Source: a virus (lineage: Duplodnaviria; Heunggongvirae; Uroviricota; Caudoviricetes). Taken from it: a stretch of 35,428 nt of DNA. The notes beneath the pieces are model-generated. The model did not search any database and was not told the origin of the DNA. It saw only the letters and a list, made by a program, of their open reading frames with translations. Numbering within the stretch: the stretch's first letter is position 1; every line of letters starts with the position of its first letter. The DNA lies in IMG/VR virus record IMGVR_UViG_2923360383_000002; one strand, 5' to 3'. Of this stretch, positions 24,672 through 34,916 are shown piece by piece. The position numbers were made by a program, and so were the translations under genes.

Positions 24672-24746
<75 letters not shown>

Positions 24747-24749
24747 ATA

Positions 24750-24825
<76 letters not shown>

Positions 24826-24827
24826 AC

Positions 24828-24904
24828 TGGACCGCCACCGGGGACTCGAACCTCGCACACTCAACTTAAAGGGTTGACGCTCTTTCCTGATGAGCTAGTG
24901 GCGG
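24828..24904 (-). tRNA. tRNA-like gene; anticodon UUU (Lys) by position, with atypical C33 and mismatches - possibly divergent or a pseudo-tRNA
   Basis: 7-bp acceptor stem (CCGCCAC/GTGGCGG), TTCGAGT T-loop, CCA end; anticodon loop CCTTTAA; T-stem has one mismatch. Confidence 0.45.
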
Positions 24905-24905
24905 T

Positions 24906-24981
24906 TGGTGGCCCTTGCTGGATTTGAACCAGCGACCTGGCGATTATGAGTCGCTCGCTCTCACCACTGAGCTAAAGGGCC
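24906..24981 (-). tRNA. tRNA with CAU anticodon, ileX-like (Ile2 if lysidine-modified, otherwise Met)
   Basis: GGCCCTTTAGCTCAGTGGTGAGAGCGAGCGACTCATAATCGCCAGGTCGCTGGTTCAAATCCAGCAAGGGCCACCA; resembles E. coli ileX more than elongator Met. Confidence 0.8.
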
Positions 24982-29100: not shown

Positions 29101-29256
29101 TTACTCCTCAGGTTCGTAAGCTGTGAAGACAGCGACCTCCGTCTGGCCGGTTCGGATTCGTACCTCGCAGAGGTCTTTCCTCGTTACCAGTGCCGTCACA
29201 ATGACGGTTAAACAGATGACGATCAGGGCGATTAGCATCGCCTTTTGCTGCTTCAT
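29101..29256 (-). CDS. hokD: Hok/Gef-family type I toxin (HokD/RelF-like, 51 aa)
   Basis: MKQQKAMLIALIVICLTVIVTALVTRKDLCEVRIRTGQTEVAVFTAYEPEE matches HokD; AGGAG RBS; in-frame upstream extension to 29313. Confidence 0.85.
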   Translation of the reverse strand: MKQQKAMLIALIVICLTVIVTALVTRKDLCEVRIRTGQTEVAVFTAYEPEE

Positions 29257-29493
29257 AGCCTGCTTCTCCTTGCCTTTCGGCGCGTAAGAGGCTAACCTAG
29301 ATTTGCCGTTCATAGATTGAGCCTCAGATTAATGTTAAGCGTCTTGCCGGACGCGTAATGTTAACTGGGGCTTTTCTCTATCTGCCTTTCAGTGTTCATG
29401 CCTGAGACAGATAGCCTCAAGCACCCGCAGCCATTCTACTTAACTCACGTCACCTCGCCAATATGAAATCAATCAGAAAGGTGATCCATAAAA

Positions 29494-31566: not shown

Positions 31567-32313
31567 TTACTTCACAACCCTCATATTGCTGACATTTGGA
31601 CGCCAGCTATCCCAGTTAAACGTCACCCATCGACCACCGTTCATGGTCATGCGGTCCATAATCCTCTCACCAAGAAGCGTACTCATTGCGGCATGATTCA
31701 GGTTTGTTAACATCCCGACACTGCACAGTGATGCTGTCCGGCGATCAATTATCTGGTGCAATACCACCTGCTCGTTTTTCGTCTCCCGCTGAACGCCTAT
31801 TTCATCCAGGACCAGCAAATCAACCCCGCAAAGCTCCTGTAAAAATTTTTCCCCGGATTTGCCGTTGTCGTAGCTGTCATGCAACACGCTCATGACGTCA
31901 GACACGGTGACGATAATCACGCTGCGCCCCTTCACCATCAGCCGGTTGCCCATCGCCGCTGCAAGGTGATTTTTCCCGGTGCCGGTTTTACCGCTGAACA
32001 CAAAATTCGTGCACCCGGTCATCAGTTCGTCAGCTATGGATTTGGCCTGGCTCAGCGCGTATTTTTGCCCGTCGTTCTGCACCTGATAATTTGCAAACGA
32101 GCATTTGCTGTGCAGAGGCTGGATGCCCGAACGATTCAGGATTTTTTCCACCCGCAACTGGCGATTCTGGCGGTTAATCTCCTCGCTGCGTTTTCGTCCT
32201 TCAGCAAGTTGCCATTCCCGCCACTCCTCCACCGTCCGGTACGGTGGAACCGACCCCTGTGGTGCAAGTCTGCGAATACGTTCAAGAACCCCAACTGCCG
32301 CAATGTTTTTCAT
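31567..32313 (-). CDS. DnaC/IstB-like replication ATPase (helicase loader; Rac YdaV-like)
   Basis: Walker A GKTGTGKNHLA and Walker B LLVLDEIG; immediately downstream of the initiator gene. Confidence 0.8.
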   Translation of the reverse strand: MKNIAAVGVLERIRRLAPQGSVPPYRTVEEWREWQLAEGRKRSEEINRQNRQLRVEKILNRSGIQPLHSKCSFANYQVQNDGQKYALSQAKSIADELMTGCTNFVFSGKTGTGKNHLAAAMGNRLMVKGRSVIIVTVSDVMSVLHDSYDNGKSGEKFLQELCGVDLLVLDEIGVQRETKNEQVVLHQIIDRRTASLCSVGMLTNLNHAAMSTLLGERIMDRMTMNGGRWVTFNWDSWRPNVSNMRVVK

Positions 32314-32319
32314 GACACG

Positions 32320-33282
32320 TCACCCCCTGAATCCCGGCGGTATTTCAGTGTCCGGTTCAGAAATGTGATTCACGCAACGCTGCGCAGGCGAACGCCCCAG
32401 GCGGATAACCAGTTCATCCCATTTTTCCCGGAGTTTTGCCGGACTCATGATGTTTTTTACCCAGAACGAATCCCGCTGGAGACGCCCAAACATTTCACAA
32501 ATTTGTCTGTGAGTTCTGCCATCCAGCATCCGCATTGTGCGAACGTCATTGGCCCATGCTGTCCAGTTGGGTTCTTTCGGTCTAGTGATCTCGCCATCAT
32601 CGCTGGCCGCCTGCTCGTAAAGACTCACGATTCGTCCCCAGATCCACTGTGCGCACACCAAATCTTCCTGACTTCCCCACTGGCGTTTTTTCGCACTGAA
32701 CACAACCGCGTCAGGGTGTCGGGTTAAAAAATCCTGTTCAGCCGTCTGCGGGTCCGGTTGCGAAGCGTCCGGACAAGAAGATCTTTTATCTGACGGATCA
32801 GGTTTTAATACTGACGGATCGGGGTCAATCATCGCCCCCCTAATCGGCAGTTTTTTATCAACAGTTGATCCATCAAAATTTGACGGGTCAACCGTTGAGG
32901 GGTCAATATTTGACGGGTCAACTGTTAACGGGTCATTTTTTGCCGGGCTAATTTTTCTTTTCGGTTTATATGACTCACGCGCCGCCGCCGCAGCTGCTTC
33001 GAGTTTTTCCACATTAAGCCGATAGATATTGCTTACATTACGCCCACCGACCTTACGCTCTTCCTTCGTCAGCCAGCCCTCTTTCGCCAGTTCTGCAATA
33101 GCCGATTTCACTGTGGATTCACTTCTTGCACCGATCTGACGCCGGATAGTTTCAATGGCAGGCCATGACACGCCCTCGTCATTGCTGTAGTCTGCAAGAC
33201 GGGCCATAACCGCCACCCTGGATAAGATCATGCCGGTGAAGGCGCACCCTTCCCAGACAAGACCATGAAGCTTGCTGCTCAT
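32320..33282 (-). CDS. Replication initiator (O-like / Rac YdaU-like) with N-terminal winged helix and internal repeat peptide
   Basis: Start taken at ATG 33282 with GGGGG RBS; repeated DPSNIDPSTVDPSNFDGSTVD segment is encoded by the iteron DNA. Confidence 0.7.
   Translation of the reverse strand: MSSKLHGLVWEGCAFTGMILSRVAVMARLADYSNDEGVSWPAIETIRRQIGARSESTVKSAIAELAKEGWLTKEERKVGGRNVSNIYRLNVEKLEAAAAAARESYKPKRKISPAKNDPLTVDPSNIDPSTVDPSNFDGSTVDKKLPIRGAMIDPDPSVLKPDPSDKRSSCPDASQPDPQTAEQDFLTRHPDAVVFSAKKRQWGSQEDLVCAQWIWGRIVSLYEQAASDDGEITRPKEPNWTAWANDVRTMRMLDGRTHRQICEMFGRLQRDSFWVKNIMSPAKLREKWDELVIRLGRSPAQRCVNHISEPDTEIPPGFRG
32790..32940. repeat. Iteron-like direct repeats (candidate origin of replication) inside the initiator gene
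   Basis: At least six copies of a TGACGG(A/G)TCA-like unit, followed by an AT-rich stretch at about 32934-32970. Confidence 0.55.
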
Positions 33283-33304: not shown

Positions 33305-33730
33305 TTAGTGCATCACCACAGCATTCCCTGCCGGGCCGCCGCGATTCATCTGGTCATACAAAACAACCGCTGACGCAACAAAATCATCGACATCCTTCAC
33401 CAGCCGATCCCTCCGTTCGACGATCTCACGGTAATATTCAGAACTGTGGCTGCGCATACGGGCCACCAGCAAAGGCGGCATCGCCTTTTCGATCGCCGGT
33501 AACAGAGCCTGCATTTTTTCAACAGCATCAGGGGTGTCTTTATCCAGCCAACGGAAAATTTTCTGGGTATTACGGGCCAGGGCTTCCGGATGGCTGTCGT
33601 CATACAGTTCCGGGAACGTCATTCCCAGCTCGAAATACGCTTTGGTAATTTTCGCAGCCGGTACTTTTTCGCCGTCCGGATGCGCCCAGGCATTCATCGC
33701 CATGCGGATGTGTTCATGCTTGATTTTCAT
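33305..33730 (-). CDS. YdaT-like protein (CII-position regulator/toxin family of Rac-type prophages)
   Basis: Starts MKIKHEHI; start overlaps the Cro-like stop (ATGA). Confidence 0.5.
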   Translation of the reverse strand: MKIKHEHIRMAMNAWAHPDGEKVPAAKITKAYFELGMTFPELYDDSHPEALARNTQKIFRWLDKDTPDAVEKMQALLPAIEKAMPPLLVARMRSHSSEYYREIVERRDRLVKDVDDFVASAVVLYDQMNRGGPAGNAVVMH

Positions 33731-33981: not shown

Positions 33982-34060
33982 ATCACCCTCACAATGTGAA
34001 CTTTGAGTACATGCTATAACAGAACTGACAGTACATTCAAGAGCGAATATCATTGAACTT
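33982..34060. promoter_or_regulatory. Divergent immunity control region (operators/promoters between Cro-like and repressor genes)
   Basis: 79-bp intergenic region containing two AGTACAT copies. Confidence 0.5.
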
Positions 34061-34480: not shown

Positions 34481-34916
34481 ACCAGCATAAATCCGGTAGC
34501 GCCTTCCTCCGGGTTTGTGCTTCACTTTATCCCATCTCATTTTTTTACACACAAAATGTACTAAAAGTACTTTACAAAAATGAACGCAAAGTACATTATA
34601 TACCTGCCACCCACCCCGCCCCACAGAATGCAGGGCAATACTTCGAGTTACCAGGCAGTGGTCAGGGGTTAAGTAGCCAGCCCGAGGCGTAAGAACATGA
34701 CGGCAGGGTTCAACTTTAATAACTATGCAGCAGGTTTTTGTTCCGCTACCCCGGCGTTAAGGGGAAACAGAGGATTTCTCAGTGGGCGAAGTCAAACATC
34801 AGAATGGAAGGCATCCCGGGATCGGCAAAGAAGCAGCAATGGCGCTTTATATTGACATCAGCGCCATTGCCGGACAGGTAAGAATTATCAGAGCGGTAAC
34901 TAAGCGGTATGCGCCT

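Follow-up and report, generated by a model that had tools for sequence, protein, structure and literature searches.

A probable iteron-type replication origin inside the initiator gene of a lambdoid Escherichia coli prophage

Origins inside initiator genes

Phage lambda has its replication origin within the initiator gene, flanked by the parts that encode the N-terminal DNA-binding region and the C-terminal loader-binding region of the protein (PMC3349717). Lambda, P22 and phage L are each reported to have distinct iterons inside their initiator genes (PMC3349717, PMC8022706), with four repeats of about 20 bp in P22 and six repeats of 11 bp in phage L, located in the coding regions of ori-binding proteins that are only distantly related (PMC8022706). 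We analysed a stretch of viral DNA of 35,428 nucleotides (IMG/VR record IMGVR_UViG_2923360383_000002; hereafter the window), in which an array of short repeats is very probably, judging from its sequence, where vegetative replication of a lambdoid E. coli prophage begins, again inside the gene of its own initiator. The arrangement is the one known from lambda, and the window origin is a further example of the lambdoid iteron origin.

The correspondence with ori-lambda extends to several features. The lambda iterons occupy aa 117-145 of 299 and the window array aa 116-165 of 320, an equivalent relative position. Read along the transcript, both have several dyad-symmetric iterons first and then an A/T-rich patch, which is weaker in the window, and an inverted repeat, and in both hybrid junctions are located at the origin. 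The two differ in detail. Whereas the lambda iterons are 18 bp long, spaced by 20-24 bp and in mixed frames, the window boxes are 10 bp long and recur in frame with a fixed period of 15 bp. The window also has a second, GATC-bearing box cluster, an initiator with an unrelated N-terminal domain (HTH_36) and a DnaC-type loader instead of P, and its A/T-rich part is much weaker, at 65-70% AT compared with about 80% over 38-40 bp in the lambda tract.

The gene 18 origins of P22 and phage L resemble the window origin in their published description; their iteron sequences are unrelated to it, and their initiator is paired with the DnaB-type helicase gp12. In iteron origins of plasmids and phage-plasmids (P1 oriR, pSC101, RK2), initiator repeats stand beside an unwinding region with clustered GATC sites. 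The window differs from these in that its origin lies in the reading frame of the initiator, the initiator does not belong to the Rep_3/RepA family by sequence, and a search of 32700-33000 found no DnaA box or IHF consensus.

The Rac prophage of E. coli K-12 has the same gene layout as the window (racR / ydaS / ydaT / initiator / DnaC-type loader), and its initiator YdaU ends, like the window initiator, in a PPGFRG tail; the terminal 19 residues alone align. In Rac, oriJ has been cited as active in replication (PMC3945230), and the papers on it give no sequence features and concern an initiator of another type. We considered whether the window origin might correspond to Rac oriJ and rejected this, as the DUF1376 domain at the N-terminus of YdaU is not similar to the window protein and a scan of ydaU revealed no comparable repeat array. 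The dnaT gene of E. coli precedes dnaC much as the window initiator gene precedes its DnaC-type gene (PMC13377028); DnaT shares only its tail with the window initiator, however, and is recruited by PriA/PriB to forks and not to sequence-specific iterons.

The O-like initiator and the box array

The array lies in an early operon with the order cI / cro / CII-like YdaT / O-like / loader, in which a cro-like gene and then a divergent cI-like repressor gene are found upstream of the YdaT-family gene (Table 1). The list of open reading frames begins the initiator gene at GTG 33297; RefSeq homologues begin at MSSKL, which corresponds to the ATG used here. The database label for the protein is 'helix-turn-helix domain-containing protein' only, and its homologue in Sakai Sp12, ECs_2276, is annotated as 'phage replication protein'.

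A Pfam search places HTH_36 at aa 30-76 (E 2.2e-6; 27.8 bits at a cutoff of 25). The AlphaFold model, for which 39 homologues served as input, has three helices and a beta-hairpin wing in the N-terminal domain (pLDDT 72-88), and a Foldseek comparison of this domain with the PDB yielded weak matches to MarR/PadR/ArsR winged-helix proteins (E 5e-3 to 3e-2). Residues 1-170 of lambda O gave no alignment to the N-terminal half of the protein. On these profile and alignment results, the N-terminal domain is of the HTH_36 type and not lambda-O-like. The C-terminal domain is helical and confidently modelled, found no match in the PDB by Foldseek, and aligns over 119 residues with aa 171-277 of lambda O at 39% identity (E 5e-26); a tblastn search with it matched 347 phage records, lambda among them. 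Thus the designation of the gene as an O-like initiator, made in an earlier sequence-only reading of this DNA, holds for the C-terminal domain and fails for the N-terminal one. Between the two domains, the linker at aa 110-181 has pLDDT below 50 and is predicted to be disordered. The product of the next gene is 80% identical to Rac YdaV (E 4e-156) and showed no similarity to lambda P on comparison, and the predicted partner of the O-like protein is a DnaC-type loader, not lambda P.

The repeated element is a 10-bp near-palindrome of the form TGAC-SS-RTCA that occurs in seven copies at 32791-32935; counted as TGAY-SS-RTCA, there are seven to eight boxes in 145 bp. All of them are in frame in the minus-strand gene, within the linker and flanked by the two folded domains, and are read as DPS-type repeats (NDPLT VDPSN IDPST VDPSN FDGST and, further along, IDPDPSVLKPDPSD / DPDPSVLKPDPSD). 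Along the coding strand, the A-rich tract (32975-32936) is followed by the tandem units, a degenerate unit and a second box cluster, and then by GATAAAAGATCTTCTT ahead of an inverted repeat. The tandem units run from 32935 to 32866 in the order TGACCCGTTA, TGACCCGTCA, TGACCCCTCA, TGACCCGTCA, TGATGGATCA, and a G-rich spacer of about 20 bp separates the degenerate unit from the second cluster.

Table 1. Features of the replication region, in window coordinates. Letters in the rows for single boxes are those of the plus strand.
Feature	Position	Strand	Remarks
DnaC/IstB-type AAA+ helicase loader gene	31567..32313	minus	Pfam IstB_IS21, E 7e-19
O-like replication initiator gene	32320..33282	minus	320 aa from ATG 33282
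C-terminal tail region ...VNHISEPDTEIPPGFRG	32323..32385	minus	match to the terminal 21 residues of E. coli DnaT; proposed loader-docking peptide
Lambda-O-type C-terminal domain, aa 182-300	32383..32739	minus	match to lambda O
Near-invariant 78-bp core	32752..32829		box cluster, GATAAAAGATCTTCTT, then inverted repeat GTCCGG-N11-CCGGAC (32752-32774)
Second box cluster, coding strand TTGACCCCGATCCGTCAG + TGATCCGTCAG	32791..32829		21 bp apart, A/T-rich spacer; GATC in each box
Box TGACGGATCA	32791-32800	plus	
Box TGACGGATCG	32812-32821	plus	overlaps TCGGGGTCA, 32819-32827
Degenerate sixth unit and A6 tract, coding strand ACTGTTGATAAAAAA	32851..32865		within low-stability patch 32849-32881
Five tandem iterons, exact 15-bp spacing	32866..32935		coding-strand core TGACCCGTCA; family consensus T-GA-N4-TCA-A
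Box TGATCCATCA	32866-32875	plus	
Box TGACGGGTCA	32881-32890 and 32911-32920	plus	
Box TGAGGGGTCA	32896-32905	plus	
Box TAACGGGTCA	32926-32935	plus	
A-rich tract (coding strand)	32935..32975		AT-rich segment of the sequence-only reading; precedes the iterons along the gene
N-terminal winged-helix DNA-binding domain, aa 1-104	32971..33282	minus	predicted iteron reader
YdaT-family (CII-like) gene	33305..33730	minus	directly upstream, same early operon; Pfam YdaT_toxin, E 2.8e-10; synteny

Tandem Repeats Finder reports periods of 15 bp (5.2 copies) and 30 bp (2.3-2.5 copies, 82-84% matches) at 32858-32956. No other multi-copy tandem array exists in the 35-kb window; the one further array (34553-34598) has 1.9 copies. 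The motif TGAYSSRTCA occurs six times in the window, 0.66 occurrences being expected, and none of 100 shuffled sequences reached six; four of the six matches fall within 130 bp. Matches at 10966 and 12502, in a long minus-strand ORF (9453..12686), are at about chance expectation and were set aside. With the relaxed pattern TGA-N4-TCA, the 300-bp bin of the array holds five sites, compared with a mean of 0.16 per bin and two in the runner-up. GATC sites are also concentrated here, with four in 90 bp compared with 3.1 per kb across the window, and three of the four lie within conserved boxes; this clustering suggests input from Dam or SeqA. The sequence-only reading had described at least six units in about 150 bp, translated as DPS-type repeats, and both the count and the translation bear it out.

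Constraint on the box DNA and mosaic relatives

We considered whether the array could be a low-complexity DPS-type peptide repeat, grown by slippage in a flexible linker, for which a 15-bp period of exactly five codons, the predicted disorder of the linker and the existence of in-frame, unit-sized indels would all be natural. The composition of the units argues otherwise. In 41 tandem units, drawn from nine phages and prophages that have diverged from one another (window, SfII, phiNP, Kp4866-6, 733R5, Flotzy, YeP1, EKP1, phiP27), the fixed positions are T-GA....TCA-A, and this DNA-level pattern is present in every lineage sampled. The serine codon is TCA in 37 of the 41, compared with 12.8% of the serine codons that these genes have outside the linker. 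At the third codon position that precedes GA, the base is T in 38 of the 41, even though its codon specifies nine different residues, and the central residue also varies (A, P, G, T, Q, C). Binomial P values for these biases are inflated, since the units within an array are related by duplication and are not independent. In one unit of the window, TGATGGATCA, the box type is reverse-complemented, at the cost of a Pro-to-Gly change in the protein; such an inversion is sensible because the DNA site is symmetric.

Conservation along the linker leads to the same view. Mean pairwise nucleotide identity among ten relatives is 0.08-0.3 over most of the linker and peaks at 0.65-0.70 in the iterons and 0.69-0.74 in the second cluster, values equal to those of the folded N-terminal domain. 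In the core, from TTGACCCCGATCCGTCA to CCGGAC (32829-32752), nearly every column is identical in prophages of Escherichia, Salmonella, Pantoea and Morganella, with flanks that diverge on either side, and the DPS..DPS encoded by the second cluster is invariant in 39 homologues. Taken together, these patterns indicate that selection acts on the DNA of the boxes and not on the peptide, and we regard a purely coding repeat as very improbable.

A scan of viral contigs with the N-terminal domain returned 100% identical copies only and informs on polymorphism, not diversity: the exact array is present in 56 of 80 near-identical contigs, and the variants are point changes and in-frame deletions of unit size, 15 bp in the tandem iterons of close relatives and 21 bp in the second cluster. 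In O157 strains, a common variant breaks a box (TGACCCC to TGCCCCC), which counts against the reading of the array as an origin.

More distant relatives form a mosaic. Where the N-terminal domains are 52-72% identical, TGA-N4-TCA at 15-bp spacing is kept, with different centres and from four to seven or more copies. Remote relatives, with 37-42% identity in this domain, have other repeats in the same position: three copies of GGTGGGGCAGGAGCTGCC in Min27, with the form GGGGCAGGAGCTG(C/A)CC in Min27 and SI5, four copies of CCTGTGCC in ZF40, and three copies of TAGGTCAAAT in Vibrio PF430-3. HannyBb, whose N-terminal domain is unrelated, has four copies of TCAAAATG there and matches the window sequence from just past the box cluster onwards. 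The iterons are retained together with the N-terminal domain in homologues whose tail and loader are of the lambda-P type. Recombination junctions fall at the inverted repeat 32752-32774. The repeat sequence thus co-varies with the N-terminal domain, in a mosaic structure where iterons move together with that domain and exchange points lie at the conserved inverted repeat. The lambda-like layout with ori inside the gene, as the sequence-only reading had proposed, is supported by the C-terminal homology, the position of the array in the protein, the DNA-level constraint and the change of repeats with the N-terminal domain.

The symmetry of the array also raises the question of whether it acts through secondary structure, as a cruciform or a single-stranded hairpin that serves as a PriA/primosome-type loading site, rather than through duplex iterons. 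Folded as single-stranded DNA, 32845-32945 reaches -19.2 kcal/mol, compared with -8.1 +/- 2.2 for shuffled sequences (z -5.0), the arms of the array (33 nt each) are 79% complementary, an overall dyad symmetry, and the initiator bears a DnaT-like tail. This dyad symmetry is, however, an automatic result of palindromic boxes separated by palindromic spacers. The long hairpin is not conserved, as relatives keep the boxes but differ in their spacers and in how many units they have, and the core (32735-32850) has no special folding (z -0.76). Structure-based loading is for these reasons the least probable of the alternatives that we weighed, and duplex iterons remain the preferred interpretation.

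Proposed unwinding and helicase loading, and distribution

An origin of this type would be expected to include a segment that opens easily, and the window offers candidates that are weaker than the lambda tract. Three low-stability patches near the array have 65-70% AT over 40 bp and fall among the top 1-3% least stable windows; the best 40-bp windows have a dG of -48.3 at 65-70% AT, compared with -44.4 at 80% AT in lambda. The AT-rich segment named in the sequence-only reading is present, with 65% AT over 40 bp at 32931-32970 (window mean 49%, sd 9%), and 32951-32971 is within the 0.8% least stable 20-step windows. It is nevertheless a weak element that, along the gene, comes before the iterons and not after them, and it is not conserved, being part of a 48-bp insertion without counterpart in SfII-type relatives and absent in SfII, Kati, 689R6 and phiNP. 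Likewise, the interval 32790-32970 given by that reading contains the boxes, while the conserved part, 32752-32829, is on the other side and partly outside it. None of the tracts is clearly the unwinding element.

This weakness bears on a further possibility, namely that the boxes are genuine sites for the O-like protein that serve autoregulation, handcuffing copy control or phage exclusion, with replication starting elsewhere. There is a parallel in lambda, where multicopy iterons (with oop) inhibit the replication of incoming rep-lambda phages (PMC3349717). However, there is no second repeat array in the replication region or in the rest of the window, the position of the array equals that of ori-lambda beside a homologous C-terminal domain, and the conserved core holds an A/T patch and an inverted repeat in a lambda-like layout. 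A role confined to such functions consequently seems improbable to us, and we favour an origin. In searches for other signals, no promoter-like or terminator-like site was found inside the initiator gene, the single promoter match (34025-34053) being upstream of the cI-like gene; Rfam returned no match in the array region; and GC skew is monotonic and tracks gene orientation, which makes it uninformative.

We suggest the following sequence of events at this origin. Initiator dimers would bind the 10-bp boxes through the N-terminal winged helix, occupying the five tandem sites and the GATC-bearing second cluster, and the bound protein would form a multi-protein complex that distorts the DNA. 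With a period of 15 bp, adjacent boxes would face different sides of the helix and every second box would be almost in phase, in keeping with the 30-bp period of the array being the stronger one. An adjacent low-stability segment would then open, the conserved candidate being GATAAAAGATCTTCTT together with the box spacers (32772-32812). The lambda-O-type C-terminal domain and the DnaT-like tail would recruit host DnaB by way of the phage DnaC-type loader, and rightward early transcription from the cro-side promoter may pass through the origin as it does in lambda.

In its last 21 residues, the initiator matches the C-terminus of DnaT (VNTVSEPDSQIPPGFRG) and that of Rac YdaU. This GFRG tail occurs on initiators that precede a DnaC-type gene, as in the window, Sp12, OkiPb01692, Rac and phiP27, and on others that have no loader gene after them, in SfII, Kati, 689R6, HannyBb, EC261, P0112, P0100 and P0076, where they presumably use the host DnaC-type loader. 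Initiators with the same N- and C-terminal domains and the same iterons that end instead in W-x-D/N-V/T-L, a tail type also found in lambda O, are followed by Phage_lambda_P in four of four cases. Tail type thus co-varies with loader type in these gene neighbourhoods, a pattern that offers a testable starting point for explaining the recruitment of DnaC-type loaders. We raise, tentatively, the possibility that the extreme C-terminal tail acts as a portable docking peptide and selects the helicase loader. If so, the origin would be a sequence-specific stand-in for the PriA/PriB/DnaT platform, and the tail of DnaT would be favoured over its N-terminal domain as the contact to DnaB-DnaC, a step described as unknown (PMC13377028).

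Evidence on the replication of present-day copies is circumstantial. A circular record of 15,977 bp that covers immunity, replication, Q and the lysis region carries the array, with no annotated plasmid rep gene and no MOB-suite replicon type; it could be circumstantial support for an origin or an assembly artefact. In O157 Sakai, the module corresponds to ECs_2276/ECs_2275 of prophage Sp12, which is listed among the prophages with DnaC-type loaders and was not seen to excise, circularise or replicate, both integrase and repressor being disrupted (PMC2669165). Because of these disruptions, the failure of Sp12 to replicate is uninformative with respect to the origin, and firing of the present copy is a matter of extrapolation from its sequence. 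Within the literature covered, searches with the box TGACCCGTCA gave only unrelated primer matches, none in a phage context, and searches for ydaU/ydaV gave no match.

For annotation, the analysis locates the likely origin of a prophage replication module and suggests a rule for finding such origins, which is to look for in-frame repeats in a disordered linker right behind a winged-helix domain. The module is carried by at least 1,516 of 5,426 complete E. coli genomes, O157:H7 with its prophage Sp12 included, and related modules are found in phages of Salmonella, Klebsiella, Pantoea, Morganella, Shigella and Yersinia.

Symmetry and variation of the iteron array

The candidate origin, an array of 10-bp near-palindromic boxes (TGA-N4-TCA) inside the O-like initiator gene, has dyad symmetry across its whole length, with two arms of 33 nt each that are 79% complementary. 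As single-stranded DNA, the same segment folds much more strongly than shuffled sequences (z -5.0). Exact, unit-sized, in-frame deletions within the array distinguish close relatives among the 80 near-identical viral contigs (L010-L089): L043 lacks one 15-bp iteron, as does OkiPb01692, and L062 lacks one 21-bp box. In O157 strains, the third box is broken by a common A-to-C change. A stretch of 90 bp contains four GATC sites, compared with 3.1 per kb in the window, and three of the four lie inside conserved boxes. This clustering points to possible Dam or SeqA control.

Elsewhere in the window, the strict iteron motif occurs at two isolated sites, both within a long minus-strand ORF (9453..12686); chance alone would give about as many. 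The only tandem repeat besides the array has a 24-bp unit, AAAATGAACGAAAAGTACATTACA, present roughly twice.

Coordinates of the array and of other prophage features
Feature	Position	Strand	Remark
Isolated motif matches	10966-10975, 12502-12511
tRNA cluster	24672-24981	-	Gly-tcc, Thr-tgt, Lys-ttt, Met-cat
sok antitoxin RNA	29251-29426	-	Rfam match, 110.6 bits
MKNIAA start of DnaC-like protein	32296-32313	-	lambda P: 1283-1300 of L100
Initiator C-terminal tail	32323-32385	-	matches DnaT and YdaU ends
GATC sites	32780, 32796, 32817, 32867
Unit-sized deletions in relatives	32812-32832, 32921-32935
Dyad-symmetric, folding segment	32845-32945
Tandem repeat	34553-34598		just past 3' end of cI-like gene

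A circular record carrying the array

The same array is found at 2037-2091 of NZ_CP148542.1, a circular record of 15,977 bp that was deposited as a plasmid and contains solely the prophage cI-cro-initiator-loader-Q-lysis segment. This record has neither an annotated plasmid rep gene nor a MOB-suite replicon type. Either it is a lambda-dv-like replicon, or prophage DNA that had over-replicated gave rise to it during assembly.

Initiator tail and loader type

With its tail, VNHISEPDTEIPPGFRG, the initiator matches the C-terminal 21 residues of E. coli DnaT as well as the end of Rac YdaU. Tail type and loader are correlated in the sequences compared (L102-L104, L107-L110): initiators with a GFRG tail are accompanied by a DnaC-type gene or by no loader gene, whereas those with a W..DVL-type tail, which lambda O also carries, are followed by a lambda-P gene in all four cases.

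The DnaC-like protein and lambda P, which are unrelated, share the N-terminal start MKNIAA (11/20 identities in the alignment, E 0.19). The likeness could be due to chance or, alternatively, could reflect a common signal, for coupling or for docking, where the O and loader genes meet.

Other prophage features

The sok match indicates a hok/sok-type toxin-antitoxin locus, whose O157 homologue is annotated hokD. The tRNA cluster comprises four genes. In Sakai Sp12, Arg, Arg and Ile tRNAs lie directly downstream of the Q gene.
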